Notes under the pieces: generated by a model
Told to the model about the DNA's origin: nothing
What the model saw: the letters and a program-made list of their open reading frames with translations, nothing else
Database searches by the model: none
Part shown: piece by piece, positions 3 to 28,829 of the stretch
Layout: each line of letters begins with the position of its first letter
Position numbering within the stretch: the stretch's first letter is position 1
Program-made: the position numbers and the translations under genes
Assembly (NCBI RefSeq): GCF_000018105.1
Contig: NC_009929.1
Span: forward strand, 30,001-62,000
Length of the DNA stretch: 32,000 nucleotides
Origin: Acaryochloris marina MBIC11017
GTDB lineage: Bacteria > Cyanobacteriota > Cyanobacteriia > Thermosynechococcales > Thermosynechococcaceae
Reading direction: 5' to 3'

Positions 3-236
3 AATAACTGTGAATATGCCACGAACTGGCTGATTGAAACGGACGGTAAATACCATGTGGGCCTGAATTACAACGATTTTGCCTCTCTGGGTATCACCAT
101 GAACGACCTAGAGAAGGTGATTTTGCGGGAGGAAATCTACAGCCAGATCAACTCCGACAACAAGTATGAGCGGGTGGCAGGCGTTGCTAGCTACCTGGAA
201 GAAACCTCTATCGACAAACAAGGACTTAAGTCATGA
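3..236 (+). CDS. 3' end of an upstream gene (5' part lies outside the window); function not assignable
   Basis: Frame 3 is open from the window edge to TGA at 234-236. The stop overlaps the ATG of the next gene (ATGA at 233-236), which suggests translational coupling into the transfer operon. Confidence 0.45.
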   Translation, partial: NNCEYATNWLIETDGKYHVGLNYNDFASLGITMNDLEKVILREEIYSQINSDNKYERVAGVASYLEETSIDKQGLKS

Positions 237-2325: not shown

Positions 2326-3041
2326 AGGTTAATGTTTTTGATAAAGCTGTCGCTAGTCCTCGGCAGATCCGTCCCAAGGCTGTTTGGTTAGGAATTATCC
2401 TGATTATTCTGGCTACTGTAGCCCTATCCTATGGACTGATTAATTTACGAATATCGTCAGTGGAGGGCAGGCTCGATCAGCTAGCCAATCGCCCGATTGT
2501 GGTTCAGTTTGGCAAGAATGCAGAACTGGTTAAAGTTGAACCCGTTACCCCTTCTGAGAATGTTGAAGAATTTGTGCAAGAAGTTCTTCCCCCTATGTTC
2601 GCCTGGTCTAAGAAGGTTCTCCCTGAAGTCCATCCCACTGGTATTGATCCAGGTCGAGATACGAAGTATGGCAAGCTGCCAACCTTGATTTTCTACTACA
2701 CCAACGCTCTGGAAATTAGATACAGAAACGTTTTCAGGAAAAATATTGCCAATTACAAGCCTGACAAATTTGAGCAGGGTGAGGCAACGTTACTCAGGAT
2801 TGAGCGATTGGTGAAACCTCGCCAAACCGAGGAAGGGTGGGAGGTTGATGTGTACGCCGATCTAATCACCCTGGATGTCGATGACGTGGCTTACATGTCT
2901 GAACCATTCAACAGCACGATCCACATTAAAGAAATATTACCCCCCAAGCACAATGCATCATTTACCCCCATCGAGGAGGCATTCGTTGCCGTGCTTAAAC
3001 GAGGGCTGATCATCACACGAATTGCAAAGTTGGAGGCTTAA
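2322..3041 (+). CDS. Bitopic membrane protein, VirB8/TrbF-like candidate
   Basis: 239-aa ORF with a single N-terminal TM helix (AVWLGIILIILATVALSYGLI) followed by a soluble domain of about 190 aa. The assignment rests on its position in the operon only. Confidence 0.45.
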   Translation: MKVNVFDKAVASPRQIRPKAVWLGIILIILATVALSYGLINLRISSVEGRLDQLANRPIVVQFGKNAELVKVEPVTPSENVEEFVQEVLPPMFAWSKKVLPEVHPTGIDPGRDTKYGKLPTLIFYYTNALEIRYRNVFRKNIANYKPDKFEQGEATLLRIERLVKPRQTEEGWEVDVYADLITLDVDDVAYMSEPFNSTIHIKEILPPKHNASFTPIEEAFVAVLKRGLIITRIAKLEA

Positions 3042-3044
3042 GCG

Positions 3045-4484
3045 ATGTCCACCGCATTAAACAAATGGCAAGATCTGACGGGTGATGTCGATGATCCGTT
3101 GGATGAGATCGTTGAAGAAGCGGATGACGACAGCGATGAGGATTACAGCGTTGTCACCAAGCACACCCTGGCAACGAACCCCATGATTAAGTTGTGCATC
3201 TGGGGTGGTGGCATTTTGGTGGTCTTGCTGGGCATTTTTGGCATCTTCTTAGGTGTGACGGCTAATGGTGGCAATACCGCTAATAATCAACAGCAACAGC
3301 AACAGGCCGCAGTCCCACCGAACGCTCAGACAGGGCTATCCAAAAGTGACCAAAAGATTGTTGAGGATCTGTTGGAGCGAGAAACCTTTAATCGCCAGCA
3401 AAAGCGTCAGCAGGTTCTCAATGGGAAAAAGCAGCAGGGAAAACCAAAAGGGAATCAACGGCCTGCCTCCGTTTCACCGCAAAACACCGTATCTGCTCCA
3501 CGGGTCATCTATCGGGCAAGGCCCATACAACAGCGCTCTCATGCCTCTTATCAGCAGGATAGGAATAGACAGTTTTTGGTGCAACGTCCGGTTGCAGTTC
3601 AACCCATAGAGCAGCCGATTGATGATCCTAATGCTGGATTCTTTACTGCCCCTGTCGCTGCTTCTAGCTCCCCCGCTAGAACGGGCAAGCGCAAGCTGCT
3701 GAAGCTTTCCAAATCTGATGAATTTAAGTCGAATAAATCGCCAATAAAACGGTTTACTCCTCCGGTCCAGGTTGCTAGTACTGCTCAGACTATTCCCCAG
3801 CCCAGTAAACAGTTTGGAAATCTTTCTGGTAACCTCCAAAATCCATATATGAATCAGATTGTGGCAACGGCTAGCCAAGCGGTGATTCCTGTGGATACGG
3901 CCATTAGCGCTCAAGTGGTCAACCGAGTCTCATGGATACCAGAAAATCCAGGTTTAGCAAAGGGGAAGGTCGTGCGCTTAAAGCTTCAGGATGATCTGAA
4001 GGATGGCGCAGGGGATGTCGTTGCGAGTCGAGGCACCATTGCCCTTGGTATTGTCACCCAGGCCACAGAGCAAGGGTTGATTTCAGTGAATCTCACCAAG
4101 ATTGGATCTAAGTTTGTTCAGTCAGGAGCCGTTGAAATCCATCAAGACGGAGATCCGACGATGATTGCCAAACTGGAGACGAAGGGAGGGAATAACGGTT
4201 TTATCAAGACGGCTCTGGATATTGGTATTGGTGGGGTCCAGACCTGGGCAAGTAACCTCAATAATCCCACGAGTCAAACCGCGATCAGTAATGGTAATCA
4301 GACGTTCCTTTCCACGAACAACAACAATCGCAATAACACTGCTGCATTTGTGGAAGGGGCTACAGGGCGGATTGGGGAACGTCTTAGACAGTCTGTTAAT
4401 GGCCCAACGCAAACCAAAATTGGTGTGTTTCGGTTTGGCGGTAAAAAAGTACAGCTCTATTTCGTGCGAGAGGTGCGTCTGTGA
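3045..4484 (+). CDS. VirB10/TrbI-like T4SS protein (candidate)
   Basis: 479-aa ORF with VirB10-type architecture: acidic N-terminus, one TM helix (LCIWGGGILVVLLGIFGIFLGV), a long Gln/Pro-rich linker and a C-terminal beta-rich domain. Confidence 0.5.
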   Translation: MSTALNKWQDLTGDVDDPLDEIVEEADDDSDEDYSVVTKHTLATNPMIKLCIWGGGILVVLLGIFGIFLGVTANGGNTANNQQQQQQAAVPPNAQTGLSKSDQKIVEDLLERETFNRQQKRQQVLNGKKQQGKPKGNQRPASVSPQNTVSAPRVIYRARPIQQRSHASYQQDRNRQFLVQRPVAVQPIEQPIDDPNAGFFTAPVAASSSPARTGKRKLLKLSKSDEFKSNKSPIKRFTPPVQVASTAQTIPQPSKQFGNLSGNLQNPYMNQIVATASQAVIPVDTAISAQVVNRVSWIPENPGLAKGKVVRLKLQDDLKDGAGDVVASRGTIALGIVTQATEQGLISVNLTKIGSKFVQSGAVEIHQDGDPTMIAKLETKGGNNGFIKTALDIGIGGVQTWASNLNNPTSQTAISNGNQTFLSTNNNNRNNTAAFVEGATGRIGERLRQSVNGPTQTKIGVFRFGGKKVQLYFVREVRL

Positions 4485-4903
4485 ACCAATTGATAGTTGC
4501 GCTGTTATTCCTGGTGAGCTGGTCAACGGTCGCCTCAGCACAGCAAGTGAGAGAGTTGAACCTCAAAGGAACAACCAATATGCGGCCCATTGCCGTTGAT
4601 CCATCCGGGGTGATTGTCCACCTCAACAATGGCGACAAGATACAGGGTTTGAGTCTCCAGCCACCGAATCAAATTGAGCTGTATCCATTGGATGGTCAGC
4701 TCTGCTCTGGAGTGAAACAGTGCCAAGGTCAGGCTCCTTCCATGCTGCAATTGACGAGGGTTAAACCCAAAAATATTAAGGGGAAGATATCAAATTCTGA
4801 TGGCTCCTCGATGTTGGTGATTGTGACGAACTCTGGAGCCAAGCATGTTCTGTTTGTGGTGCCTACGAGTCGGGCCAAGTATCAAGTCGTCAATATTCAG
4901 TAA
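4481..4903 (+). CDS. Small secreted protein, last gene of the T4SS-like operon
   Basis: 140-aa ORF with a GTG start overlapping the upstream stop (GTGA). It has a signal peptide, MNQLIVALLFLVSWSTVASAQQ. Confidence 0.5.
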   Translation: MNQLIVALLFLVSWSTVASAQQVRELNLKGTTNMRPIAVDPSGVIVHLNNGDKIQGLSLQPPNQIELYPLDGQLCSGVKQCQGQAPSMLQLTRVKPKNIKGKISNSDGSSMLVIVTNSGAKHVLFVVPTSRAKYQVVNIQ

Positions 4904-5900: not shown

Positions 5901-6396
5901 GGAAGCAGATGAGATCCTCATGTTGTATAGCTTTAACAATGTCTATCTTTATCTAAAATTGCTATGTAAGTGATGCTCTGTTTTAGATATTGATTGGACT
6001 TTTCTAATCTTTACTAGCATCAATTCCAGTCGTTTTTTCGTATTTGAGGGAGGTATATAGCTTCTGAGTATAATCAACCAAAAGTGTCCAATACATCGCT
6101 ATTTGCACAGATGTACAAAATTAGTGCTCAGCCTATAAAACGCTGAATCTATTGCTGTTAAGTAGTTTTCGGTAATTCTTTCTCTGATTTTCTATTCAAC
6201 AGATGTAAATAATTAGATGCATCGATGCCATTAATTTGGGTTGAGCAATGTACAGCATTATTTGCACACCTATCAACGCCAATTGTTAGATCCATGACTC
6301 CAGAACGGAATAACTGAATCTCAAATCAAGCTGAAGACTCGTGTAATTTCATGGCTTACCCCAGATAATTTAACGATATCTGCCATAAAAACAGCC

Positions 6397-6825
6397 ATGA
6401 CTGAATCTGTAACCCTAACAGCCACAGTAATTGCTAATCTTGCCTTTCAAGAATTCCTAAAAACCAGTGCTGGTGAAGCAGCAAAACAGTTCACTGCTGA
6501 TGCCCTTTCCTTGATGGGGAAACTCCGTCAGAAGATTTGGGATAGGCTACGCGGTAAACATGGCGCAGCAGAACAGGCATTAACCCAGGCAGAGACAGGT
6601 GATCAGAAAGCAATTGAAACTGTTGCTACTCTGCTAGATGTGGAAATGCTAGATGAAACTTTTGCTGGAGAACTACGACAGATAGCCCAAGAAATCAATA
6701 TTCATATCAGCAAGGACAACGACACCCAAGTTCAAAATAACTACGGTGGAACCAACTTCCAAAACAGTATTTCAGGTGGAGAAGTCTATCAAGGCGATAA
6801 CATCACCATCAATAAGACCATTTGA
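6397..6825 (+). CDS. N-terminal helical adaptor-like module (effector-associated-domain-like); upstream part of the interrupted NLR-like gene
   Basis: 142-aa ORF. Its first 100 or so residues are clearly homologous to the N-terminus of the 9569-10525 ORF (MTExxTLxAxVIANLAFQExLKxSAGE...FTADA...LRQKIWxRLRGK). It ends at a TGA (6823-6825) that is in frame with the NB-ARC ORF downstream. Confidence 0.7.
   Translation: MTESVTLTATVIANLAFQEFLKTSAGEAAKQFTADALSLMGKLRQKIWDRLRGKHGAAEQALTQAETGDQKAIETVATLLDVEMLDETFAGELRQIAQEINIHISKDNDTQVQNNYGGTNFQNSISGGEVYQGDNITINKTI
6823..6825 (+). other. Single in-frame TGA (context TGA-CTAG) separating the N-terminal module from the NB-ARC-TPR body
   Basis: ORFs 6397-6825 and 6994-9105 share frame 1. 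Codons 6826-6993 are open and encode the canonical pre-P-loop segment (...NLPRSGVKEFVGRNQKLQDLHEQLQNSQRIAITAIAG). That stretch contains no in-frame ATG, GTG or TTG. Confidence 0.8.
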
Positions 6826-6993
6826 CTAGAGTCGCCTGACCAGGACCGGGCAAAGTTAAATCCTCCTATTGGCATTCCCTCTAACCTTCCCCGAAGTGGG
6901 GTTAAGGAGTTTGTTGGTCGTAACCAAAAACTTCAAGACCTCCATGAGCAATTACAAAACAGCCAACGTATTGCAATTACAGCTATAGCTGGG

Positions 6994-9105
6994 ATGGGGG
7001 GCATTGGCAAAACAGAGCTGGCATTGCAATACGCCATAGCTCAATTAGAACAGGAGCAATACCCCGGAGGAATTTGTTGGCTAAGAGCCAGGGGCCAAGA
7101 GATAGCAACCCAGATAGTGACCTTTGCTCAGACTAAACTGGGTCTTACTTTCCCTGATGGATTAGATGAAAAAGGGCAGGTCGATTATTGTTGGGGACAT
7201 TGGCGAGAGGGAGATGTACTGGTTGTTCTCGATGATGTAACTGAGTTTGATGCAGTTGAACCCTATCTGCCTCCCTCAGATCCTAAGTTCAAAGTATTGC
7301 TGACAACTCGTTTGAACTTAGGCAGCTCTGTGCAGTCACTGTCCATTGAAGAACTAGATGAGGAGAGTGCATTGGCTCTACTTGAAACGCTAGTGGGACC
7401 AGACCGGATTCAATCACAATTGGAGGATGCTAAAACCTTATGTGGTTGGGTCGGTAACTTACCGTTAGGACTAGAGCTGTTGGGACGGTTTCTAGCGAGA
7501 AAATTAGACTGGTCCTTTGAAAAATTGATTGGGCGTCTTGAGTCCAAGAAATTAGCAGCGAAAGCTCTTATAACCAAAGAATCAGGAATGACGGCTCAGT
7601 TAGGGGTAGCTGCTGCATTGGAGTTAAGCTGGGTAGATCTAAGTGAGGCAGAACAAGAACTTGCCTGTTTATTAGGCGTGTTTGCAGTTGCTCCGATTCC
7701 TTGGCATCTGGTTGAAGAATGTCTATCTGATCGGGATAAAGACGATCTGGAGGACATTAGGGATGAAGGTTTAAGAGATAAAAATTTACTCAAACGAGTT
7801 GAAGAGAGAACCTACCAACTCCATCAAATTGTGAAGGAGTTCTTTCGGATTAAGTTGCAAGAATCTTCTGGTAATGGGGAGTCGCTGAAGCAGTCATTTT
7901 GTAAAGCAATGGTGGGAATTGCTCAGGGTATTGGAAACAATCCAACGATTGATGTAATTGCAGGGATGAGTGCCAGCATTCCCCATCTAGAGGAACTTGT
8001 CAGACAATGGATAGACATTCTGAGTGATGATGACTTAACCTGGCCCTATGTCGGCATCGGTCGATTTTATGAAGGGCAAGGGAACTATGGATTAGCTCTG
8101 CCTTTGTATCAAGAATGCCTGGAACAGACAAAAAAAAGATTCGACAGCGAACACCCCTCTGTCGCTCAAAGCCTCAATAACCTGGCATTACTCTACGACA
8201 ACCAAGGACGGTACACAGAAGCAGAACCCCTCTATGTCCAAGCCTTGGAGATGAGACAGAATCTCTTGGGTACCGAACACCCCGATGCCGCAACGAGCCT
8301 CAATAACCTGGCAGTACTCTACTACGACCAAGGGCGGTACACAGAAGCCGAACCGCTCTATTTGCAAGCCTTGGAGATGAGAAAGAAGCTCTTGGGCAGC
8401 GAACACCCCGGTGTCGCTCTTAGCCTCAATAACCTGGCAGCACTCTACACAAACCAAGGGCGGTACACAGAAGCCGAACCGCTCTATTTGCAAGCCTTGG
8501 AGATGAGAAAGAAGCTTTTGGGCAGCGAACACCCCGATGTCGCAACTAGCCTCAATAACCTGGCAGCACTCTACACAAACCAAGGGTGGTACACAGAAGC
8601 CGAACCCCTCTATTTGCAAGCCTTGGAGATGCAAAAGAAGCTCTTGGGCAGCGAACACCCCGATGTCGCTCAAAGCCTCAATAACCTGGCAGCACTCTAC
8701 GACAACCAAGGGCGGTACACAGAAGCCGAACCGCTCTATGTGCAAGCCTTGGAGATGAGAAAGAAGCTCTTGGGCAGCGAACACCCCGGTGTCGCTCTTA
8801 GCCTCAATAACCTGGCAGCACTCTACACAAACCAAGGGCGGTACACAGAAGCCGAACCGCTCTATGTGCAAGCCTTGGAGATGAGAAAGAAGCTCTTGGG
8901 CAGCGAACACCCCGATGTCGCTCAAAGCCTCAATAACCTGGCAGCACTCTACGACAACCAAGGGCGGTACAGCGAGGCAGAACCCCTCTATTTGCAAGCC
9001 TTGGAGATTTACCAGAAGCTCTTGGGCGATGAACACCCAAACACAGTTAAAGTTCAGAGTAATTTTGACGATTGCCGCCGAAGAATAAAGGAGTCGAATA
9101 CTTAG
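6994..9105 (+). CDS. NB-ARC (STAND) NTPase with C-terminal TPR array, NLR-like. The frame is open from 6826, and the listed ATG lies inside the P-loop.
   Basis: NB-ARC motifs are present: Walker A G-MGGIGKTE, Walker B VLVVLDDV, LLTTR, and a GLPL-type motif GNLPLGLELLG. Seven 42-aa TPR units of kinesin-light-chain type follow (SLNNLAxLYxxQGRYTEAEPLY). Confidence 0.85.
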   Translation: MGGIGKTELALQYAIAQLEQEQYPGGICWLRARGQEIATQIVTFAQTKLGLTFPDGLDEKGQVDYCWGHWREGDVLVVLDDVTEFDAVEPYLPPSDPKFKVLLTTRLNLGSSVQSLSIEELDEESALALLETLVGPDRIQSQLEDAKTLCGWVGNLPLGLELLGRFLARKLDWSFEKLIGRLESKKLAAKALITKESGMTAQLGVAAALELSWVDLSEAEQELACLLGVFAVAPIPWHLVEECLSDRDKDDLEDIRDEGLRDKNLLKRVEERTYQLHQIVKEFFRIKLQESSGNGESLKQSFCKAMVGIAQGIGNNPTIDVIAGMSASIPHLEELVRQWIDILSDDDLTWPYVGIGRFYEGQGNYGLALPLYQECLEQTKKRFDSEHPSVAQSLNNLALLYDNQGRYTEAEPLYVQALEMRQNLLGTEHPDAATSLNNLAVLYYDQGRYTEAEPLYLQALEMRKKLLGSEHPGVALSLNNLAALYTNQGRYTEAEPLYLQALEMRKKLLGSEHPDVATSLNNLAALYTNQGWYTEAEPLYLQALEMQKKLLGSEHPDVAQSLNNLAALYDNQGRYTEAEPLYVQALEMRKKLLGSEHPGVALSLNNLAALYTNQGRYTEAEPLYVQALEMRKKLLGSEHPDVAQSLNNLAALYDNQGRYSEAEPLYLQALEIYQKLLGDEHPNTVKVQSNFDDCRRRIKESNT
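8158..9039 (+). repeat. Seven tandem 126-bp (42-aa) near-identical TPR-coding repeats
   Basis: The 126-bp period is read directly from the sequence. Units 3 and 6 differ by a single residue at protein level. Differences cluster at the first 4 residues of each unit and at the LY-xx-Q positions. Confidence 0.9.
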
Positions 9106-9568
9106 CTATTTGTTGATTAATAGCTTTAGGTGTGCAGTAATTATGTATAATCGGCATTTTTAAATTTATTCAATTGCCAAAAATTGAAACCCAGTAAAAT
9201 CGTCAATCTGAGCACTAATTTTGTACATCTGTGCAAATAGCGATGTACTGTACAAAAAGCTTTCATGTCCATTATTTCTTTAAACGCACAAGAATGAGCG
9301 ATTTATAGAATTAGCTGCACAACTTTGAATCGCTACAAACTAAATTCAGAGGCTGATCTGCTGATTTATAGGCAATGATACTCAAGAAGTGGAATTAAAG
9401 TTTTAGCTGCACTTTTTCTGAGAAAAAAATAAATTCTTTAAGGAATTAGTTGCATTATTTCTTCCAATCAGTCGATTCTCTATTGGTCTGAATCTCAAAT
9501 TTCGTTGAAGGGTCGCGTAAATTTATAGCTTTGCCCAGATAATTTAACGATGTCTGCCAAAAAAAGCC

Positions 9569-10525
9569 ATGACTGAACCTATTACCTTGTCAGCCGCAGT
9601 AATCGCTAATCTTGCCTTTCAAGAAATCCTAAAATCTAGTGCAGGTGAGGTTACAAAAAAGTTCACTGCTGATGCAATAGCTAAGATGAGCGAGCTTCGT
9701 CAAAAGATTTGGGCCAGACTAAGGGGTAAGTCTCAAAAAGTTGATGATGCTTTAAAGAATACTGAGCAAGGAGATTCTTCAGCTCTATCAACTATTGCCA
9801 AGAATTTAGATGTAGTGATGGATGAGGACGCTGAGTTTGCATCTCAAGTTCAGGCCATAGCTCAAACTATCAATGCTGGCAAAATTCTTGACCAGAGCAA
9901 TATGACACAGAATCTTTCAGATAATGCCAAGGGTTGGCAGACCAAAGTGGAAGGGGGAGTGGCGTATATTGGAGAAATTCATCAGCAGTTTACTGGAGAT
10001 CCAATACTTAAATACGAGCCTCCAACCATCAATTCTATAAGAGGCTTTCATAACGGCATGCAGTCTTTGGTTTTGGAAGACATTGGAAATGTACCCGTTA
10101 CAATAACTAAGGAAAAACACGAAGGAATTAATGGTGAATGTGATTACACAATTGAATTTGAGATTTTTAATAAAAGTAGAGCGGATCTGAAAATAAAAGC
10201 CATACTTGTCGAAGTCTTGTCTGTAGAACCGATTGAATCGATCATTGACTACATACCCTTATGTGGGTTGGGTGAAGCTCGACTGTATTCTTGCCGAGTT
10301 GATGGACGACCAGGAATATATCGATCGAACTTGTTAGAAAGTACATTTAGTGGATATATATTTCTTCAGAGCGGTGAGCAAGAAACTATCCAAATTGCTA
10401 TTAATACCAAGGATGAAGGGAAATACACGCTACGTTCTTTATTGGAATTATCAAGTGTTGATGGACTGAAGACAATATCAGTTGGTGAGTTTAACAATGT
10501 ACGATTTCTCAAACTTTCGAGATAG
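9569..10525 (+). CDS. Protein with the same N-terminal adaptor-like module as 6397-6825, fused to an unrelated beta-rich C-terminal domain (candidate effector or partner)
   Basis: 318-aa ORF. The N-terminal 100 or so residues are homologous to the NLR N-terminal module. About 95 nt upstream are also conserved at roughly 80 percent (CCCAGATAATTTAACGATRTCTGCCA...GCCATGACTGAA). Confidence 0.7.
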   Translation: MTEPITLSAAVIANLAFQEILKSSAGEVTKKFTADAIAKMSELRQKIWARLRGKSQKVDDALKNTEQGDSSALSTIAKNLDVVMDEDAEFASQVQAIAQTINAGKILDQSNMTQNLSDNAKGWQTKVEGGVAYIGEIHQQFTGDPILKYEPPTINSIRGFHNGMQSLVLEDIGNVPVTITKEKHEGINGECDYTIEFEIFNKSRADLKIKAILVEVLSVEPIESIIDYIPLCGLGEARLYSCRVDGRPGIYRSNLLESTFSGYIFLQSGEQETIQIAINTKDEGKYTLRSLLELSSVDGLKTISVGEFNNVRFLKLSR

Positions 10526-10689
10526 GCTCGATCATGAGAATGCTTTAGCGACAAGAATAGAATAAAAACTATAGCGCGCAGGTGCATCAAAGTATCTGTG
10601 AAAAATGAAGGTCCAGTTTCACTACTTTCCAGTGCCCATGTGTTTCACAAATGTTCGTGTTCACATGCAAGTAGTTGTCCGCTTCTACT

Positions 10690-10860
10690 CGGACTTGTCT
10701 GAGTGTGGTGGTAAGGTCGCACCTTATGCCGGGAGCAATGTTCTTAAACTAGGCCACCGCGTCTAGTTTGAGAATACAGGATAAACCTGTCGTGGCAGCT
10801 ACTAAATTGCCCCCGAGCAAGGGGGAACCCTAGAATCTCAAGGCCAACTCAAATTCTGAT
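10690..10860 (+). ncRNA. Type V-K (Cas12k) tracrRNA-like sequence; boundaries approximate
   Basis: The region is non-coding and structured, with hairpins TAAGGT-CGC-ACCTTA (10712-10726), ACAGG-ATAAA-CCTGT (10776-10790) and CCCCC-GAGCAA-GGGGG (10810-10825). GTGGCAGCTACTAAATTGCCCCCGAGCAAGGGGGAACCCTAG resembles, from memory, the 3' part of published Cas12k tracrRNAs (...CACCCCCGATCAAGGGGGAACCCTCC). Two collinear antiparallel anti-repeat patches are visible. AACCCTA (10826-10832) pairs with TAGGG(G)TT in the repeat. CCAAC-TCAAAT (10844-10854) pairs with ATTTGA(GG)GTTGG in the repeat. Confidence 0.55.
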
Positions 10861-11027
10861 TTCTTTAGATTGACTTGGTGCATTCCTCAAAACCCTCTAT
10901 GATTAAAAACTTTGGTGATTAGCCTCTTATCTTTTTGGATGCTTCTTTGCCAAGGTGATTCAATATGATTGTGATCCGCGATTTAATTGCTCAAAGTCAT
11001 GCCAGGACTAGGCTAATTAGAAGGTGG

Positions 11028-11136
11028 GTTGCAATGACATTTGAGGGTTGGTAGGGGTTGAAAGTCAGATCGGCTCTAGGCCATCGTCTTTTTCAAAACG
11101 TTGCAATGACATTTGAGAGTTAGTTGGGGTTGAAAG
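11028..11136 (+). CRISPR. Mini CRISPR array: two 37-nt repeats separated by one 35-nt spacer
   Basis: R1 at 11028-11064 is GTTGCAATGACATTTGAGGGTTGGTAGGGGTTGAAAG. R2 at 11100-11136 is GTTGCAATGACATTTGAGAGTTAGTTGGGGTTGAAAG, with 3 mismatches to R1. The spacer lies at 11065-11099. The 37/35 geometry and the GGGGTTGAAAG 3' end are typical of V-K repeats. The array lies about 170 nt downstream of the tracrRNA-like region and 174 bp from the element's right tip. Confidence 0.55.
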
Positions 11137-11346
11137 AACGTCGGCTTCCCAAATTCTTTTGTAATCCAGTTTTCTAAAAGATTTTTGTGCATGTAAAACT
11201 TTAAAACTGGAGGTTTTTATTTTCTTTATCTGCTAACTATTGAAAAAACGCAAATTCGTAAATTTTGCAGCTAATTCCTTAAAGCTGTGCGTTTAAAGAA
11301 ATAATGGACATTTCAATTTTTTTTAGATCAACCAATTCTGATTCCT

Positions 11347-11364
11347 AAATTCTGGGTAAGTTTC
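11347..11364 (+). promoter_or_regulatory. Conserved operon-leader box, copy 1 (AAATTCTGGGTAAGTTTC)
   Basis: One of four copies of AATTCTGGGTAA(T/G)(G/T)TT, each 30-55 nt upstream of a backbone gene start (here 11387/11393). Confidence 0.5.
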
Positions 11365-11386
11365 AACAGACCATCACGCAACTCTG

Positions 11387-13999
11387 TTGATCATGCCTCG
11401 ATATCCCAGAAGAATACTCAGCCTACTCCCCGCTGCTGCACTGGCACTGCAATCGTTTCCCGCAGTGGCTCAGATCATCAACCAACAAACCCTAGAAGCA
11501 GCCAACCATAACACCCAAACCCAGGAAGAGGGAACGATACCCGGACTCTACTATGACCCATCTGGTGTTGTGGCTCCAACCTTTGCCAATAGTCAAGCCT
11601 CAGAGACAGCGGGGAGTATTCGCTTACCCGCAGGTTCCCAAGCTCCTTCATTCCTTAACGGTGCATGGCCCGCGAATGCCAGCTCAGATCAAGTTCTCAA
11701 GATCGGTCACCTGAAAGATCATCCGCAGTTTAAGCAGTTTACGGAATTGAATATCAATGAGGTCTTAAAAGCCAGTGGCAAAGACCCTTCAACCGTAACC
11801 CTGTCTGAGGTGCCAATCGCATCAACAATGACAGTGGGAGAGTATCTGCAAATTAATCCTGGTGCTGCTGAGCAGTCCTTAGAAGACGCTCCCGCAGTGG
11901 TGCAATCTGCATTTGGGTACTACGAGGATGAACCCCTACTGCACGAACCCATTGATCAAACAGACATTGTTTTTATAGAACAGAAAGCATCCAACCCAGA
12001 GATATCTGATATCCCCGCTGAAGATTTACTACAGGGAGACTGGGGTGAAGCCTTCACCCAAGAGGAACAGAGTCAGCTATCGAAGACCCTCAGCAAGGTT
12101 AATGAACGTCTGCGAAAACTACCCTTAAAACAGCTTATTCCTTTAGCTCAAGGGATTGTCAGTGGCGATTGGGATACAGTCAAAAAGCAGGCCAAAGATC
12201 TAGCAATCAAGGAAGGTTCTAAAGTTCTGATCAAAGAGCTGATGAAGAATCCCAAAATCGCCAAAGCTATCAAGGATTTACCCTTGGGAACCTTACCCCT
12301 AGATAAGCTGGGATTGGCTGATGCGCCAGGGGTGGGAGAGACAGCGATAAAGGATATCCCAGGTTCTGAAGATAAGACCCTTAATCAAGTCCCTGGTCTT
12401 AAAGATGTGCCTCTTGACCAGATTGATTTAGCGTTGGCGTTGAGCTTCACTCGACTGGATTTGCTGGGGCGAATTGACACGACTGATGCTGCCGCAGTGG
12501 TCGATAACATCGACTATGTGATCAGTGGTGGGACCAAAGACCAAATTCCAAAACCTGCACCCTGTAAAATCGATGGGAAAGATACCAAGAACTGTCGTCA
12601 CTTTGAGTTAGATAACGTTGATGGGGGTGGCGAACCCACGAAGTTATCAGGGCAAGCCTGGATTCAAGGGCCTGATCAGATGGTGCCCGGTGGGCAAGGC
12701 TGGTTGAGAATTATAGCCAATGGCAAGGAAGTCACGGGGATTAAGCCTTGGGTGGCAGGCAATGTCAAGCTGTACCTGGAAGACATGAGGGAAGGGTCAG
12801 GGGATGAGGTGGGATCTGCCCGGTTGTCCACGGCATGGCAGTTTGGCTATTCAGATCCAATTACTGGAAGTCATTACACCCCTCATTTCATCAGGATTCC
12901 AACCCCCTGGCGCATTAAAGAAGGTGGAATCATGTTGCTTCTAGCTCGATCTGGGGGCATTCCTGATGCAATCCGTAATCTCCAGCCCAGTCAACAGCAG
13001 TTTTGCAGGGAACCTACATTGGTTGCCTCAGCACAAACGAACAATGCCACCGATTCAAATCAGACGACTGGTGGTGCTGATGGCAGCTCACCCCCCCATA
13101 GTGAACAACATCATATAAATCAGTATTTGGCCCGCATTGCTTATGGTGAATCTACTGGAGGTACTGATATTGGGCCTCATCCCGATACTGGTGCATATGG
13201 TGAGTACCAGTTTATACAGAAGAGTCGAGATACGCTTTATACCAGGACGGGTATTGATGCTTGGTCTGAAAGTAAAGAAGAACGTGATCGTGCTGCATTA
13301 GCTTGGATTGATATTTATGGTCAGGAAGTCGGCCATGACATCATCAGCTATATTCGTTCAGGAAATTTTGAGGCTGCTGATTATTTGTTGGGGCGTAATC
13401 AGTTCACCAGTCTCCCTGGAGGAGCTGAAGATGTGAAGTGGAATGATCCAGTTGCCCTTGAAGTCTATGGTCCTAATGGCAATGCTCCAGTTACACCTAC
13501 AGGTGCAAGTGCATCTTCCGGGGTTCCATTCTGTCAACCAACCAATGGCTCAGCTACTTTTGCCCAAGGTCCAGCACCGGAAGCAGGGCAGGTAAATGCA
13601 AGTATTTATCAAGCTGCAAGACAAATGTATGGGTTTGATACTTCAAGCGGGCCTGAAGGAGGAAGTCAAGCATGTGCTTGGGCTGTTGATCATGTCCTGG
13701 CTAAGGCAGGTATCGAACCGATGCGTACAGATAATGTCTTAAACGTCTTGGATAAGATGAAATCAGGAAGAGGTACTAGAATTAATTCTGGACAAGCTCA
13801 ACCAGGGGACATTATTCTCTCGAAGGGGTATGACCATATTGGAATATGCATGACGGCTGGTTGCACTGAAGTACTATCAAACTCATCCAGTAAAGCTTCA
13901 TTCTCTTGGCGATCTGATGGAACTTTCGATGGATGGTATGATCGCTCACGTTTTTTACATGAGGCACCTACGGAAGAAATTTGGAGAATCCAACGATGA
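11387..13999 (+). CDS. Secreted bifunctional cell-wall hydrolase for transfer: lysozyme/SLT-like domain plus C-terminal NlpC/P60-CHAP-like cysteine peptidase
   Basis: 870-aa ORF (TTG at 11387; the ATG at 11393 is the more likely start). It has a signal peptide, LSLLPAAALALQSFPAVAQ. The motifs AYGESTGG...GAYGEYQF resemble glycoside-hydrolase motifs. The C-terminus has a Cys...His pair (SQACAWAV ... GYDHIGIC) typical of NlpC/P60-CHAP. Confidence 0.65.
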   Translation: MIMPRYPRRILSLLPAAALALQSFPAVAQIINQQTLEAANHNTQTQEEGTIPGLYYDPSGVVAPTFANSQASETAGSIRLPAGSQAPSFLNGAWPANASSDQVLKIGHLKDHPQFKQFTELNINEVLKASGKDPSTVTLSEVPIASTMTVGEYLQINPGAAEQSLEDAPAVVQSAFGYYEDEPLLHEPIDQTDIVFIEQKASNPEISDIPAEDLLQGDWGEAFTQEEQSQLSKTLSKVNERLRKLPLKQLIPLAQGIVSGDWDTVKKQAKDLAIKEGSKVLIKELMKNPKIAKAIKDLPLGTLPLDKLGLADAPGVGETAIKDIPGSEDKTLNQVPGLKDVPLDQIDLALALSFTRLDLLGRIDTTDAAAVVDNIDYVISGGTKDQIPKPAPCKIDGKDTKNCRHFELDNVDGGGEPTKLSGQAWIQGPDQMVPGGQGWLRIIANGKEVTGIKPWVAGNVKLYLEDMREGSGDEVGSARLSTAWQFGYSDPITGSHYTPHFIRIPTPWRIKEGGIMLLLARSGGIPDAIRNLQPSQQQFCREPTLVASAQTNNATDSNQTTGGADGSSPPHSEQHHINQYLARIAYGESTGGTDIGPHPDTGAYGEYQFIQKSRDTLYTRTGIDAWSESKEERDRAALAWIDIYGQEVGHDIISYIRSGNFEAADYLLGRNQFTSLPGGAEDVKWNDPVALEVYGPNGNAPVTPTGASASSGVPFCQPTNGSATFAQGPAPEAGQVNASIYQAARQMYGFDTSSGPEGGSQACAWAVDHVLAKAGIEPMRTDNVLNVLDKMKSGRGTRINSGQAQPGDIILSKGYDHIGICMTAGCTEVLSNSSSKASFSWRSDGTFDGWYDRSRFLHEAPTEEIWRIQR

Positions 14000-14421: not shown

Positions 14422-16203
14422 ATGAGTCACCATACTGAACAACCTATACAACCCCCTCAGCAACCTAGTCCCCAGATTGACTTTCAGGTGTATGTGCTGG
14501 GTGGTCTTTTCCTTGTCATCCTCGTCCTCGTCGCCATCACCAAAGGAGAAATAGGACACAAGAAGCAAAAGCTTGGAGATGCCCGCACGGCAAAAGATAA
14601 TGAGATGAGGAAGGCTCAACATCTCGCCTATGATGCTCTTGAGAAACGTGAGCGGAACAAGATTACGCTGTGGGCAGGGGAACCTAAAGGGCTGACGATT
14701 GATAACGAGAATCGTGAGATATTCATACCCCGCGATCTGAATTCCTGGATCTTCTCCTACCTTGAGGAGCATTTTCTAACCTTTGGTTCTAGTGGTTGCG
14801 GTAAGACCTTCTCCCTTATGGCCCCCCTGCAACGAGCCATGATTAAGTTAGGGTTACCCCTGTGTGTTTTCGATGCCAAAGGCCATGAAGAGACCGAGGA
14901 TCAGGCTTGCCCATCTTCAGAGATTGCGGGCTATGCCAGACTTCATGGCTACAAGGTGAAGATCATCGCTCCTGGCGATAAAGATTCTGATGTCTTTAAC
15001 ATCTTCGACATGATGGAGGCTAAGGATGATAGACCTGCCTACGAAGACAAAGATAACGCCTATGTGATTTCTGATGTTCTCAATGAGAACATGCAGATGA
15101 ACAATGCAGATTCAGGTGATCAGTTCTTCCCCTTGGCCTCGAAACAACTGATGCAGGCCATGTTTATGTGGGCCAAGATGCTTGATCCAGATGGGGATGA
15201 ATTAATCCTCGCCTACTATCTCCTCAAGCGGGTGGCTCAAGTTGGTGCGGCTGGGATTGCTGCCTTAGATCTTCCCCCTTATGTTCAAATTGCGTTTGAC
15301 CAATTTCTCGTCAGTGCGGGAAGTCCTGAGACAGCAGCCAGTATTGCGGGTACAGCTTTGATCTTGTTTGGGCGAATGATTACCCCAGCGACCACAGCAA
15401 CATTCTGTGGCAAGTCCACGGTGGATTTGAATGTCACTGGCAAGACACTGGTTATCTTCAGATTGAATCCCAAGATGAAAGCTGCTACGGGTCCAATGTT
15501 GGCAACCACTATTCAGTGTTTCCTTCTCTCGAACTGCTATACAGCTCGTAAACAACCCTTGGCCTTTTTCTTAGATGAGTTCCAGATGATCAAGATCTGT
15601 GAAATTCAAAAGATTCTGACCGTTGCTCGATCCAATGGTGTGAGCCTCCTCTTTGCCACACAGGGAATGAGCTTTATTGAAGAGACTTATGGTGAAAAGA
15701 GAGCCATTGGCATTGTGGAAGGGTGTAAAACCCAAGTCCTAGGCCAGCTCAACGGGAACAAAGTCGCTGAATACTACGGTAAGCAGTTGGGCAAATCAGA
15801 GGTTGTCACTCGCAGTAAATCAAAATCAACTGGGAAATCCTCGTCAACTTCTAGGAATGATAGTCCTCATGCCAAAGATTTAGTTTCAATGGGTGAATTA
15901 ATGGGATTGCCCCAAGGCTCCTTCTACGTGCTGAGTCGAGCGATTGGTAATAAGAGGCTGGCTCGTATTCCCATGAGACGGAACTTCGTTATTCCTAAGT
16001 GGGAAACGGATGATGCCAAGCGAGGGGTTAAAGAATGGTTCAAATATCGAAAGGTTGCCCGCAAGCGTAGCAAGGCCAAGTCGATGTCAAACGAGGAGAT
16101 GATCCGGTATCGAGAAATGTCCGTTGCGATATTGCCAGATCCTAAAGATGATGACGACGATGATGGAGGCGATACCTTAGCAAAGGGAATTTCATCACTG
16201 TGA
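14422..16203 (+). CDS. Type IV coupling protein (VirD4/TraG family)
   Basis: 593-aa ORF with an N-terminal TM helix (VYVLGGLFLVILVLVAI), Walker A FGSSGCGKTFS and Walker B FFLDEFQM. The C-terminal tail is basic and then acidic. Confidence 0.8.
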   Translation: MSHHTEQPIQPPQQPSPQIDFQVYVLGGLFLVILVLVAITKGEIGHKKQKLGDARTAKDNEMRKAQHLAYDALEKRERNKITLWAGEPKGLTIDNENREIFIPRDLNSWIFSYLEEHFLTFGSSGCGKTFSLMAPLQRAMIKLGLPLCVFDAKGHEETEDQACPSSEIAGYARLHGYKVKIIAPGDKDSDVFNIFDMMEAKDDRPAYEDKDNAYVISDVLNENMQMNNADSGDQFFPLASKQLMQAMFMWAKMLDPDGDELILAYYLLKRVAQVGAAGIAALDLPPYVQIAFDQFLVSAGSPETAASIAGTALILFGRMITPATTATFCGKSTVDLNVTGKTLVIFRLNPKMKAATGPMLATTIQCFLLSNCYTARKQPLAFFLDEFQMIKICEIQKILTVARSNGVSLLFATQGMSFIEETYGEKRAIGIVEGCKTQVLGQLNGNKVAEYYGKQLGKSEVVTRSKSKSTGKSSSTSRNDSPHAKDLVSMGELMGLPQGSFYVLSRAIGNKRLARIPMRRNFVIPKWETDDAKRGVKEWFKYRKVARKRSKAKSMSNEEMIRYREMSVAILPDPKDDDDDDGGDTLAKGISSL

Positions 16204-28729: not shown

Positions 28730-28829
28730 TGAACCGCTGAGGACTCGAACCTCAATCACCCCCTTCGTCAAGGCACTACTCAGAATACACTGATGGAGGA
28801 GGGTGCTTTACCGATTAAGCTAGCAGCTC
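28730..28829 (-). tRNA. tRNA-like gene with canonical acceptor, D and T arms but a 35-nt anticodon loop (CU-CCA...ACG-AA); possibly a pseudo-tRNA or a tRNA-derived regulatory RNA
   Basis: Read on the minus strand. The acceptor stem GAGCTGC pairs with GCGGTTC (2 G-U pairs) and the discriminator is A. U8 and A9 are present. The D arm is GCTT-AATCGGTA-AAGC. The anticodon stem is CCCTC/GGGGG, the variable loop is TGAT, and the T arm is TGAGG-TTCGAGT-CCTCA. The loop between the anticodon stem halves is CTCCATCAGTGTATTCTGAGTAGTGCCTTGACGAA, which is 35 nt rather than 7. No CCA is encoded. Confidence 0.55.

Follow-up and report, generated by a model that had tools for sequence, protein, structure and literature searches.

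Two small transposons lie side by side in the 32,000-nucleotide stretch of Acaryochloris marina MBIC11017 DNA analysed here (the window), and each carries a gene whose product begins with the same module. In one, an NB-ARC-TPR (NLR) reading frame follows; in the other, the module is fused to a beta-rich domain. The locus therefore raises the question of whether the two products form a sensor/effector pair, as the first-pass annotation had proposed, or whether each gene is complete in itself. The features are collected in Table 1.

Table 1. Features of the two elements, in window coordinates.
Feature	Position	Strand	Remarks
Target duplication of element 1, AAAAG	6080–6084 and 9255–9259	.	read from sequence
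Left end of element 1	6085–6313	+	terminal inverted repeat 6085–6131 (TGTCCAATACATCGC...)
Conserved leader of Bell gene (presumed promoter and 5' UTR)	6314–6396	+	82% identical to 9488–9565
142-aa ORF, Bell and BASS9-like motif	6397–6825	+	ends with TGA 6823–6825
Candidate recoding signal	6823–6855	+	TGA, CTAGAGTC, 5-bp hairpin 6834–6838/6847–6851, AAAG
NB-ARC-TPR (NLR) reading frame	6826–9105	+	same frame as 6397–6825
TPR array	8014–9069	+	126-nt (42-aa) units, 79–90% mutually identical, 7 copies in register
Right terminal inverted repeat of element 1	9208–9254	-	complementary to 6085–6131
Target duplication of element 2, TTTCA	9261–9265 and 11311–11315	.	read from sequence
Left end of element 2	9266–9487	+	terminal repeat 9266–9290 (TGTCCATTATTTCTTTAAACGCACA)
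Leader of second Bell gene	9488–9568	+	
318-aa fusion protein	9569–10525	+	
Probable type V-K CRISPR-associated-transposon guide-module remnant	10560–11136	+	compared with the consensus in PMC12416283
Right end of element 2	11171–11310	-	terminal repeat 11286–11310

Each gene was found on a mini-transposon of its own, as had been suggested, bounded by terminal inverted repeats and 5-bp target duplications. Element 1 (6085–9254) has 47-nt arms that are 96% complementary, and the arms of element 2 (9266–11310) match perfectly (25/25). Sub-terminal repeats are present in both, as internal repeats in the left end of element 1 (6092–6109/6251–6268 and 6107–6124/6199–6216) and as AATTAGCTGCAC-like sites at 9309, 9401, and 9444 in that of element 2. 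Both are non-autonomous Tn7-like transposons, in agreement with the earlier description of the cargo. They were inserted one base apart into an Acaryochloris conjugative plasmid, upstream of a conserved plasmid gene, and the separate target duplications indicate that the insertions were independent. The common left arm that had marked them as siblings was not recovered: the two left ends share just a TGTCCA-TA tip and short motifs, and the left end of element 1 had no other copy among PLSDB plasmids. The stretch that the elements do share begins at the genes' own leader, whose reported conservation was reproduced (82% identity over about 80 nt, 6314–6391 against 9488–9565). Homology with other plasmids starts exactly at 6314, and the same leader stands ahead of five further Acaryochloris copies, making seven in total; its conservation was absent in other genera, and no consensus sigma-70 site was called in it. 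Judged by these alignments, the leader is part of the gene unit rather than of the transposon.

The N-terminal parts of the two products proved homologous, as claimed, with 49% identity over a 136-residue alignment (E = 3e-37), and the DNA is 79% identical between 6387–6557 and 9559–9729. From its sequence, the common module is identified as a Bell domain followed by the BASS9 amyloid-signalling motif (Dyrka et al., 2020). Residues 112–134 of the 9569 product match BASS9 strings that this study lists in Table S2, for example that of OYQ62169.1 (residues 110–132, MTQNNSDNAKGWQTKVEGGTAYI); the latter Bell protein is encoded by one of the loci compared here (L043) and is homologous to the 142-aa ORF. 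A Bell domain with an amyloid motif is predicted to form the executioner half of a bacterial Bell/NLR pair; such systems are known from filamentous bacteria and operate by homotypic interaction of their motifs, and the Bell domain itself is predicted to kill the cell by attacking the membrane (Dyrka et al., 2020). The first-pass annotation had regarded the module as adaptor-like and effector-associated, but a profile search yielded no match to the Pfam EAD models, and as Bell plus BASS9 it would be an effector with a signalling motif rather than a neutral adaptor. The profile databases searched hold no curated profile for the Bell domain, and a Foldseek search gave no structural confirmation of its fold (best E = 1.9).

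In the 142-aa ORF the Bell domain covers residues 1 to approximately 107 and is helical with a hydrophobic N-terminal helix; the AF2 model has helices at residues 9–107 followed by a low-confidence tail. The motif at residues 111–138 (6727–6810) is a diverged, BASS9-like variant and a putative amyloid former. Among the 120 homologues listed (of 147), 118 are stand-alone proteins of 137–164 aa. In the 9569 product, the Bell domain (residues 1 to approximately 107) is followed by a canonical BASS9 motif, MTQNLSDNAKGWQTKVEGGVAYI, at residues 112–134 (9902–9970) and by a beta-sandwich domain at residues ~146–318 (10004–10522).

This C-terminal domain had been described as beta-rich, and its predicted structure is indeed all-beta (pLDDT 88). 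It resembles Ig-like, ApaG, PapD, and arrestin-like folds, and no effector signature was found in these structural likenesses. The domain represents a real family, with 51 distant relatives detected; it is invariably C-terminal and follows TIR (10/39), CHAT, trypsin, EAD11, or TM helices, and a stand-alone 182-aa homologue (P0122) could be aligned from residue 8 to 176. At the nucleotide level the 9569 gene is 91% identical to the Bell gene of plasmid pREC3 up to position 9981 and unrelated beyond, and the homologue search detected the Bell-beta-sandwich fusion in no strain other than MBIC11017. By these comparisons, the 9569 product is a strain-specific Bell-BASS9/beta-sandwich fusion and no conserved partner for the NLR. 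By analogy with the domain architectures of the relatives, it would most likely act alone, as an effector joined to a binding or sensor domain, and not as a partner of the element-1 NLR. Element 2 would then be a derivative of the classical two-gene Bell/NLR version in which the stop, the NLR N-terminus, and the entire NLR were swapped for an in-frame beta-sandwich and a stretch that looks like the guide-RNA end of a type V-K CRISPR-associated transposon.

That the 9569 ORF is instead a functionless accidental chimera, left when recombination put foreign DNA in the place of the NLR in an element-2-type transposon, strikes us as doubtful though not far-fetched. The pREC3 homology that breaks off at 9981 returns at 11171, the replaced segment is low in G+C (0.38–0.40) and includes non-coding CRISPR-like material, and the uniqueness of the fusion to this strain also fits such an event. 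However, an entire Bell-BASS9 and a full-length copy of the domain (compare P0122) meet in frame at the junction, the domain folds confidently in the model, other effectors (TIR, CHAT, and trypsin) are combined with it in the same manner, and the promoter/leader was retained.

The CRISPR-like material comprises a tracrRNA-like region with the stem-loop CCCCCGAGCAAGGGGG followed by AACCC (10810–10830) and two 37-nt repeats (11028–11064 and 11100–11136), ending in GGGTTGAAAG, that flank a 35-nt spacer. Compared with the published type V-K consensus (PMC12416283), this stretch is probably a remnant of the guide module of a type V-K CRISPR-associated transposon. Element 2 contains no cas12k or tns genes; the remnant gave no Rfam match, its spacer had no protospacer within the window, and no identical repeat was found in a CRISPR context elsewhere.

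At the same site, pREC3 carries an element-2-type transposon with a Bell-BASS9 gene and then a separate BASS9-NLR gene, and its right end is 88–90% identical to that of element 2. The element-2-type left end also precedes Bell/NLR units on three further Acaryochloris plasmids, and it is present in a locus from a metagenome-assembled genome (L009), which has a complete 2.9-kb element-2-type copy. The unit of leader, Bell, and NLR thus stands behind an element-2-type left end in those three plasmids and behind a different one in element 1, which is evidence for the proposed shuffling of cargo modules.

We then turned to the element-1 gene. The NB-ARC and TPR domains expected downstream of 6397 were readily detected with Pfam (NB-ARC, 4.6e-16; TPR_12, 2.6e-132), but they are not fused to the N-terminal module as had been assumed, since the TGA ends the ORF after 142 aa. 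The first ATG, GTG, or TTG of the NLR frame is the Met (6994) within the P-loop GMGGIGKT (6991–7014), and no canonical start codon is present ahead of it in 6826–6990. The NLRs of two-gene systems carry an N-terminal motif, which the element-1 NLR lacks.

This arrangement was compared in 20 loci from many cyanobacterial genera in which the P-loop lies 51–56 codons past the Bell stop. In 20/20 the NLR occupied frame 0 and its frame stayed open from the stop onward, whereas 32 two-gene loci were distributed over frames 0/1/2 as 12/8/12. The stops of the frame-0 loci were TGA (16), TAG (3), and TAA (1), with C as the +4 base in 18 of the 20, although shared descent means that these counts overstate independence. 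The two-gene loci used TAG (17), TAA (10), and TGA (5), mostly with G or T at +4. Termination is leakiest at UGA and with C as the +4 base (PMC5289835). Pairwise identity reached 72% in the 30 nt past the stop, compared with 38–40% in the flanking windows, and this conservation extends to third codon positions. The island includes a 5-bp hairpin starting 8 nt downstream of the stop, in which 99% of the alignment cells are paired and three pairs show compensatory changes; its covariation score was 0.359 versus 0.143 for shuffled alignments (0/500 shuffles reached it), and RNAalifold predicted the identical stem. The single-sequence fold showed no gain in stability over shuffled sequence (z = 0.22), and an outer helix around the stop was 68% paired, without convincing covariation. 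A covariance model of the signal found 29 sites, every one at the end of an effector ORF. Two diverged plasmid copies keep the frame as well as the TGA with the CTAGAGTCG that comes after it; for the NLR, PGAP placed the start at an ATA in one and at a GTG inside FVGR in the other. The cassette also follows an alpha/beta-hydrolase gene with a motif (L003) and a different, BASS5-like Bell gene (L050), both with an in-frame NB-ARC downstream. A true fusion that lacks the stop exists (P0195), and the long polypeptide is therefore a viable architecture.

From these comparative sequence patterns we infer programmed stop-codon readthrough, with the short effector as one product and an effector-NLR fusion as a rare second one. 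A one-frame system of Bell and motif, leaky stop, and NLR, together with a 9569 product that acts alone, is in our estimation the best explanation of the whole and a reasonably probable one. Element 1 would be a compact unit of Bell plus motif, a leaky TGA-C, a hairpin 8 nt on, and a start-less NB-ARC-TPR. The majority of ribosomes would terminate and release the 142-aa executioner, and a minority would read through to make a Bell-motif-NB-ARC-TPR sensor of approximately 900 aa; in this way, one mRNA would yield effector and sensor at a ratio determined by the stop codon. Triggering of the TPR sensor would be followed by NB-ARC oligomerisation, and the motifs, now clustered, would nucleate an amyloid fold. 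The free 142-aa proteins would take up this fold by templating, and their Bell domains, once released, would kill the cell. If this is true, a short killer protein and a long, rarely made sensor are encoded by one gene. In bacteria, hairpin-stimulated readthrough is poorly documented for ordinary stop codons, and our literature search found no prior report of readthrough of this kind.

It is rather unlikely that element 1 holds two ordinary genes, with the NLR initiated at a non-canonical or an internal codon, or through termination-reinitiation, and the post-stop conservation reflecting an initiation or RNA-processing signal or a conserved NLR N-terminus. A Bell/NLR pair is usually encoded by two genes whose gap or overlap is very short, PGAP annotates relatives as two CDS, and many loci have a GGAG-like sequence (CTGGAG, AAGGAG) after the stop. 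Some loci also offer potential in-frame starts in the linker (GTG, TTG, or ATG 17–45 codons past the stop; in L007 a GTG directly after it). However, no start codon is positionally conserved, and no canonical one is reached before the P-loop in the window, L002, L004, or L010; CTA, which is no initiation codon, follows the stop in roughly half of the loci. Independent initiation would not need frame 0, yet it was universal among the 20 loci, and stop usage is shifted toward the leakiest signal. Moreover, a separately made NLR without an N-terminal motif could not signal to Bell.

The pairing of the element-1 STAND protein with the 9569 product through the shared module is considerably less likely still. 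The modules are clearly homologous, the genes lie 2.7 kb apart on the same strand, and Bell/BASS systems do use homotypic motif interaction (Dyrka et al., 2020); to this extent the earlier analogy with multicellular-type STAND/effector conflict systems coupled by a shared homotypic element stood. The choice of the 9569 product as effector or adaptor did not. Its motif and that of the 142-aa protein agree at about 6 of 23 positions (~26%), below the 43–56% identity of amyloid-motif pairs with experimentally validated cross-seeding, and its C-terminal beta-sandwich lacks an effector signature. The insertions were independent, either unit occurs without the other in related plasmids, and the expected co-occurrence of the two genes was not seen, the fusion having been detected in this strain alone and Bell/NLR units of related plasmids lacking it. 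A free Bell-motif protein is already supplied by element 1: its NLR has a natural partner in the 142-aa protein that its own ORF encodes, and the 9569 product is unneeded.

Finally, it is highly improbable that the stop is a decay mutation that left the NLR of element 1 a pseudogene and the small Bell protein alone functional. Clear decay is seen in several family members (L012, L019, L022, L025, L027, and L044), whose downstream frames break off after 16–198 codons, but the stop position is kept in more than 20 loci whose Bell proteins are 39–56% identical to that of element 1, intact downstream ORFs of 500–880 codons still score as NB-ARC and TPR, and the stop varies among TGA, TAG, and TAA and is never a sense codon.

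The products of the 6397 ORF (142 aa) and the 9569 ORF (318 aa) are homologous over their N-terminal regions, as the first-pass annotation had reported (49% identity over 136 residues, E 3e-37, for the products of 6397-6825 and 9569-10525), and the resemblance of their upstream leaders was also borne out (82% between 6314-6391 and 9488-9565). The shared module had been described as adaptor-like and left unnamed; we instead recognise in it the predicted executioner domain and amyloid-signalling motif of the known Bell/BASS9 system. Residues 112-134 of the 9569 product (MTQNLSDNAKGWQTKVEGGVAYI) follow the pattern of the BASS9 entries in Table S2 of Dyrka et al. (2020, bioRxiv 10.1101/2020.01.06.895854), for example MTQNNSDNAKGWQTKVEGGTAYI; the table pairs BASS9 with N-terminal strings of neighbouring NLRs, among them LIQINEGNAKGFQTLVTGGIANI. 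The tail of the 6397 protein is a diverged BASS9 variant, QVQNNYGGTNFQNSISGGEVYQ, whose NYGGTN(F/Y)Q core recurs at the N-terminus of an NLR in the protein collection (P0179). One of the fetched loci, L043, encodes OYQ62169.1 of Pseudanabaena sp. SR411, a Bell protein listed in Table S2 with its motif at 110-132 counted from M3, and this protein is 41% identical to the 142-aa ORF (tblastn, E 3e-25). Bell has been described as a helical domain of ~100 aa with a hydrophobic first helix, in a protein of ~120-140 aa (bioRxiv 10.1101/2020.01.06.895854). The AF2 model of the 6397 protein contains five helices (9-20, 34-51, 56-65, 70-83 and 87-107; pLDDT 74-86) and an unconfident tail, and the protein begins with TLTATVIANLAF, the hydrophobic N-terminal helix expected of Bell. 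The predicted helices together with the tail fit the published description. Based on the BASS9 tail match, the listed homologue at L043 and the helical model, we assign the module as an executioner domain joined to an amyloid motif, and it is very probably a Bell/BASS9 amyloid-signalling effector.

The 142-aa ORF has 147 relatives in the protein collection; 118 of the 120 listed stand alone and are 137-164 aa long. Every one of the 80 genomic loci retrieved with relatives of this ORF is cyanobacterial. Neither Pfam, NCBIfam nor PADLOC contained a model matching the shared module or the 9569 product. The Pfam EAD profiles found no match in either protein or in 42 family members, even at E <= 1, and an EAD-type coupling domain is not supported. 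A Foldseek search of the PDB with the Bell model gave a best E of 1.9; matches to Bcl-2-like folds and to NRG1 CC-R were not significant, and HeLo/MLKL/Bab-type structures gave no significant match. A copy of the motif on the NLR side was not found in the window, where the element-1 NLR frame opens LESPDQDRAK... and no NLR adjoins 9569, and a matching motif on the NLR side is present in the syntenic element of pREC3, a plasmid of A. marina MBIC10699 (LQINLGDSRGFQTLVEKGGIANVG).

The 6397 module and the NB-ARC-TPR region had been taken for a single ORF. This view required correction, as a TGA (6823-6825) ends the 6397 ORF and the NLR continues in the same frame (6826-9105), with clear matches to Pfam NB-ARC (4.6e-16) and TPR_12 (2.6e-132). 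The earliest ATG, GTG or TTG in the NLR frame encodes the Met within the P-loop GMGGIGKT (6994). Two diverged Acaryochloris plasmid copies (~76-79% nucleotide identity over the unit) keep the TGA, the next nine bases (CTAGAGTCG) and the frame relation of the NLR; the NCBI pipeline starts the NLR at an ATA in one of them and, in the other, at a GTG within FVGR. The window shares UGA CUAG with at least 12 related loci. Bacterial termination is least efficient at UGA and with C at position +4 (PMC5289835), and a recent preprint gives UGA-CUAG as a motif common to validated human readthrough genes (bioRxiv 10.64898/2026.07.14.738498).

The 30 nt that follow the stop form an island of conservation, with 72% pairwise identity vs 38-40% in the 30 nt preceding the stop and in the two 30-nt windows beyond the island, and third codon positions in the island are conserved as well (0.75 vs 0.45-0.54). 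Within it lies a hairpin with a 5-bp stem starting 8 nt past the stop (6834-6838 with 6847-6851) that is paired in 99% of cells. Compensatory changes were detected in three stem pairs, giving variants such as GTCCG/CGGAC, GTCGG/CCGAC and GCCTG/CGGGC, and pairing is kept despite amino-acid changes such as Arg to Pro. The stem covariation score of 0.359, compared with 0.143 after shuffling, was reached by none of 500 shuffles, and slid controls paired at 14-46%. RNAalifold predicted the same stem, and single-sequence folding of this short stem was unremarkable (z = 0.22). An outer helix pairing the stop codon with AAAGTTAAAT was paired in only 68% with little covariation and is not claimed. Recoding to selenocysteine (SECIS) would need UGA always and is excluded, since the same position is occupied by TAG at four loci (L024, L037, L048 and L067) and by TAA at another (L008). 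The only tRNA-like gene in the window is of the Arg(CCG) type with a 28-nt insert and is not a suppressor. A promoter scan of both leaders returned no sites above chance.

We compared 52 loci that contain a Bell ORF and a downstream P-loop ORF; they fall cleanly into two groups, 20 loci of class B and 32 of the two-gene class A. The P-loop lies 51-56 codons past the Bell stop in class B and 88-426 codons past it in class A. The class-B stop is TGA at 16 loci, TAG at three and TAA at one, followed by C at +4 in 18/20; class A has TAG (17), TAA (10) or TGA (5), followed by G (17), T (9), C (4) or A (2). Class-B hosts include Acaryochloris, Phormidesmis, Leptolyngbya, Pseudanabaena, Moorena and Myxacorys, among others, and their Bell proteins are just 39-56% identical to that of the window. 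Judged from these sequence comparisons, the stop in the 6397/NLR unit is conserved and not accidental, and programmed stop-codon readthrough between the Bell ORF and the NLR appears fairly probable. The main rival is that the NLR is initiated independently of the Bell ORF. Class-A NLRs have their own start, often with their own BASS9 motif, and their frame relative to the Bell ORF is distributed 12/8/12 over frames 0/1/2. In class B, by contrast, the NLR is in frame 0 at 20/20 loci and open from the stop, no NLR start codon is conserved in position, and an NLR made by independent initiation would carry no motif. Independent initiation is therefore unlikely. The NB-ARC and TPR domains downstream of the class-B stops are intact, and simple decay is a very unlikely origin of the stop.

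A covariance model consisting of the stop and the hairpin was run over the 712 kb of fetched loci; it recovered every training site and two new ones. At L003 (2813-5875, Acaryochloris sp. 'Moss Beach' pMB04), an alpha/beta-hydrolase gene (DUF676/Abhydrolase_6) with an amyloid-like tail is followed by TGA and the hairpin; the tail reads ...FNNEISGGEVYQGENITINKTT, the sequence after the stop LESSDWDRTK..., and a 714-aa NB-ARC-TPR follows in frame. At L050 (8781-10408, MAG Cyanobacteria bacterium P01_H01_bin.105), a different Bell-like protein of 127 aa ends in a BASS5-like tail (GKLAEKIGFVFQGG); TGA CTGGAGTCG and the hairpin come next, and then an NB-ARC in the same frame. The stop and hairpin are thus a cassette that is portable between effector modules and not restricted to Bell effectors. 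A classical two-gene Bell-BASS9/NLR pair lies directly upstream at the L050 locus. A 274-aa partial protein from a short metagenome contig (P0195) joins a Bell-like domain, BASS9 (FQTKVEGGTAYIG) and NB-ARC in one polypeptide, with neither a stop nor the LESS..RTK linker. From its sequence this protein appears to be an independent 'all-in-one' solution with a diverged Bell-like domain.

From the anatomy, conservation, frame statistics and covariation observed here, we infer the steps of translation and signalling as follows. Most ribosomes would stop at the UGA and yield the 142-aa protein of Bell domain and motif. A fraction would read through, helped by the C at +4 and by the hairpin at the mRNA entrance, producing a Bell-motif-NB-ARC-TPR protein of ~900 aa. 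This product would take its motif from the Bell ORF, in the same place relative to NB-ARC as the motif that a classical NLR has of its own; in the pREC3 NLR (...GFQTLVEKGGIANVG...NNLPRSGVKEFVGR) the motif is located just upstream of NB-ARC. Ligand binding would lead to oligomerisation, the clustered motifs would nucleate an amyloid fold, and the excess short protein would be converted, upon which its Bell domain would attack the membrane. The same mechanism has been proposed for Bell/BASS (bioRxiv 10.1101/2020.01.06.895854) and demonstrated for the analogous Bab/Agp (bioRxiv 10.1101/2024.11.07.622273) and HET-S/NWD2. We consider it probable, from sequence, that a short executioner and a rare readthrough sensor are made from one ORF. 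The wider proposal is evenly balanced in our judgement: that a portable cassette of a leaky stop (usually UGA-C) and a hairpin 8 nt on lets cyanobacterial NLR genes yield an abundant free executioner and a rare executioner-tail-NB-ARC-TPR sensor that nucleates it, and that this cassette has been recombined behind at least three effector modules (two Bell types and an alpha/beta-hydrolase) and travels on mini Tn7/CAST-like elements.

The first-pass observation is largely upheld; its interpretation was of the right kind, with the particulars mistaken. The system is a member of a known family, that of Bell/BASS9-NLR amyloid signalling, and the window shares with the pairs of Dyrka et al. (2020, bioRxiv 10.1101/2020.01.06.895854) the helical N-domain of ~100 aa with a hydrophobic first helix, the 23-aa C-terminal motif, the association with NB-ARC-TPR and the cyanobacterial host. 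It differs in that the element-1 NLR has neither start nor motif and continues the Bell frame beyond a leaky stop and hairpin that are conserved, and in that element 2 has a fused beta-sandwich domain in place of the NLR. As in fungal HET-S/NWD2, 'all-in-one' HeLo-NLR proteins and E. coli Bab/Agp, a sensor would nucleate an amyloid that is templated onto a pore-forming executioner. Single-polypeptide effector-NOD-repeat proteins exist among the fungal HET-S/NWD2-type and 'all-in-one' systems, and in the E. coli Bab/Agp abortive-infection system a non-NLR partner can bear the motif (bioRxiv 10.1101/2024.11.07.622273). All of these use two genes or one fused gene, whereas here one ORF would give both forms, and no sequence or fold match of the window proteins to HET-S/NWD2, HeLo-NLR or Bab/Agp was obtained. 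The effector-associated domains of STAND NTPases (Kaur, Burroughs, Iyer and Aravind, 2020) likewise provide a common homotypic module that joins the NTPase to effectors, and EAD11 is found on one relative of the 9569 C-domain; unlike these, the window module is the effector itself with an amyloid motif.

Examples of programmed readthrough include the UGA of the phage Qbeta coat/A1 gene and the retroviral gag-pol UAG with its downstream structure. The arrangement in the window resembles these signals, and the human UGA-CUAG signal, in having a leaky stop, a conserved RNA structure ~8 nt on and a functional in-frame extension; it differs in belonging to an immune gene of a bacterial cell, in using a short hairpin and not a pseudoknot, and in being a prediction from sequence. 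Viruses and eukaryotes provide well-known cases of programmed readthrough, which has rarely been documented in bacterial cellular genes. Readthrough of Bell/NLR genes is not mentioned in the literature searched, and the terms "readthrough" and "stop codon" are absent from Dyrka et al. (2020). The conserved stop and hairpin that join effector and sensor in one frame, recurring behind three effector types, appear to be new. If the reading is true, no immune receptor of a prokaryote would previously have been described with programmed stop-codon readthrough, and NLR systems would have a third architecture in addition to the 'two-gene' and 'all-in-one' forms. For amyloid signalling by NLRs the sensor must be sub-stoichiometric and the executioner in excess, a ratio that a leaky stop in one ORF would fix genetically; such encoding would also explain why these NLRs have neither a start nor a motif. 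The candidate signal is conserved, defined by its sequence and ~30 nt long, and so lends itself to a direct reporter test. Annotation pipelines currently call two products at such loci, a 'hypothetical protein' and a 'tetratricopeptide repeat protein', and the ATA or GTG starts that they assign are arbitrary.

At the site of element 2, pREC3 has one element-2-type transposon with a classical Bell/NLR pair. Its Bell-BASS9 gene encodes 145 aa and is 91% identical at the nucleotide level to window 9255-9981, and its second gene is a separate BASS9-NB-ARC-TPR, with 84% identity to element 1 over the NB-ARC-TPR part. Homology between the window and pREC3 breaks at 9981 (codon 138) and restarts at 11171, such that 1.2 kb in the window, made up of an in-frame domain of ~175 aa and non-coding sequence, replaces the stop codon and the entire NLR. 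The 9569 product had been put forward as the partner of the element-1 NLR, coupled to it through the common module. It is not a conserved partner of that NLR: the fusion is strain-specific; the 6397 and 9569 motifs agree at ~6/23 positions, compared with 43-56% in cross-seeding pairs; and the expected co-occurrence is contradicted by related plasmids that have one unit without the other. A word-indexed search with the 9569 C-domain returned only the 9569 protein itself, and an exhaustive HMMER search found 51 distant relatives. In these the domain is always C-terminal, preceded by TIR (10/39), CHAT, trypsin, EAD11, HEAT repeats or transmembrane helices, and one relative is stand-alone (182 aa). 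The domain is modelled as a beta-sandwich (pLDDT 88) that resembles ApaG, PapD/ASH, TRAP and arrestin-type Ig-like folds. By analogy with the domain architectures of these relatives, we read the 9569 product as a putative self-contained effector, with Bell as effector and a binding or sensor domain. That the fusion is instead an inert chimera is doubtful.

Both elements have TGT...ACA tips, 5-bp target duplications and several sub-terminal repeats at each end, with end sequences TGTCCATTATTTC... and TGTCCAATACATCGC..., and the two insertions are separated by one base. No tnsB, tnsC, tniQ or cas12k ORF is present in either element, and since neither encodes a transposase both must be mobilised in trans. 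The termini, duplications, sub-terminal repeats, recurrent site and defence cargo are those of the Tn7-like and type V-K CAST elements of cyanobacteria, from which elements 1 and 2 differ in lacking these genes and in having no tRNA gene where they are inserted. Three other Acaryochloris plasmids also have a left end of the element-2 type upstream of their Bell/NLR units, a MAG locus (L009) contains a complete copy of 2.9 kb including both ends, and the classical two-gene Bell/NLR form lies in the same transposon type in pREC3 and L009; no other copy of the element-1-type left end was found in PLSDB. The unit common to all copies starts exactly at the leader (window 6313/6314). The 'common left arm' ascribed to the two elements is accordingly the gene's own leader and coding region, and the finding of the same leader and Bell/NLR cargo behind different transposon ends gives real support to the modular shuffling that had been suggested. 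We compared the insertion (window 6075-6084, 9260-9265 and 11316-11400) with the fetched locus L086 (4660-4693 and 8484-8570). In the window and in pREC3, the insertion points of the element-2-type transposons differ by a few bases and adjoin a common CAAAAGCTTT, both ~75-100 bp upstream of the same conserved 870-aa gene, which suggests a preferred attachment site for this type. Bell/NLR-type cargo on mini Tn7-like elements appears to be a further new detail: in Acaryochloris plasmids this cargo moves on small non-autonomous elements, one with a module resembling CAST guide RNA.

Features of the two elements and their plasmid surroundings (window positions)
Feature	Position	Details
Element 1	6085-9254	~3.2 kb; 47-nt terminal inverted repeats, 96% complementary; AAAAG on both flanks
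Element 2	9266-11310	~2.0 kb; perfect 25-nt terminal repeats; TTTCA on both flanks
Whole CRISPR-like region	10560-11136	in 2-kb element without cas12k or tns genes
tracrRNA-like stem-loop, then AACCC	10810-10830	~200 nt upstream of repeats; resembles second anti-repeat consensus AACCCnCCC (PMC12416283)
Two 37-nt direct repeats	11028-11064, 11100-11136	92% identical; 35-nt spacer; 150 bp inside right end
TraG/TrwB-type coupling protein	14422-16203	
IS21-family element	17146-19421	IstB intact 18558-19421; transposase in two ORFs, 17146-18081 and 18008-18877
TrwC relaxase	21138-25172	
tRNA-like gene	28730-28829 (-)	46.9 bits Rfam

Element 2 further resembles type V-K CAST in having two repeats with the V-K 3' end beside its right end: the final 10 nt of these repeats (GGGTTGAAAG) are identical to the 3' consensus published for type V-K CAST (PMC12416283). 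No protospacer for the element-2 spacers was matched within the window, no Rfam family matched the CRISPR-like region, and the tracr-like stem string retrieved nothing in a literature search. A metagenome scan with the last 19 nt of the repeat gave four matches, and the three inspected (L087-L089) lie inside long-ORF spans with no sign of a CRISPR array. From its sequence the segment is a probable CAST-derived guide module, and element 2 may be a guide-RNA-bearing non-autonomous CAST derivative. Elsewhere in the window, the tRNA-like gene is missed by default ARAGORN and, with introns allowed, is called as tRNA-Arg(CCG) with its 28-nt insert in the anticodon loop; ~35 nt downstream of it lies GTTGCACACCGACCGTTGAAAG, which is like a truncated V-K repeat.

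The window is part of a conjugative plasmid, and its plasmid matches are all to Acaryochloris. The IS21-type element accounts for the only Mu-transposase/IstB matches in the window; its transposase appears split into two ORFs and so possibly frameshifted. The TPR part of the NLR (8014-9069) is an array of 126-nt units, 79-90% mutually identical, which fits the highly conserved internal repeats reported for fungal and bacterial NLRs and produces a spurious 282-aa ORF on the opposite strand (8188-9036). Near the start of the window, 233-4903 contains five tightly packed overlapping ORFs of 340, 357, 239, 479 and 140 aa, which had no match in Pfam, NCBIfam or PADLOC. Of these ORFs, at least the last three are also conserved in pREC3, where they lie immediately upstream of the region with the same transposon insertion.
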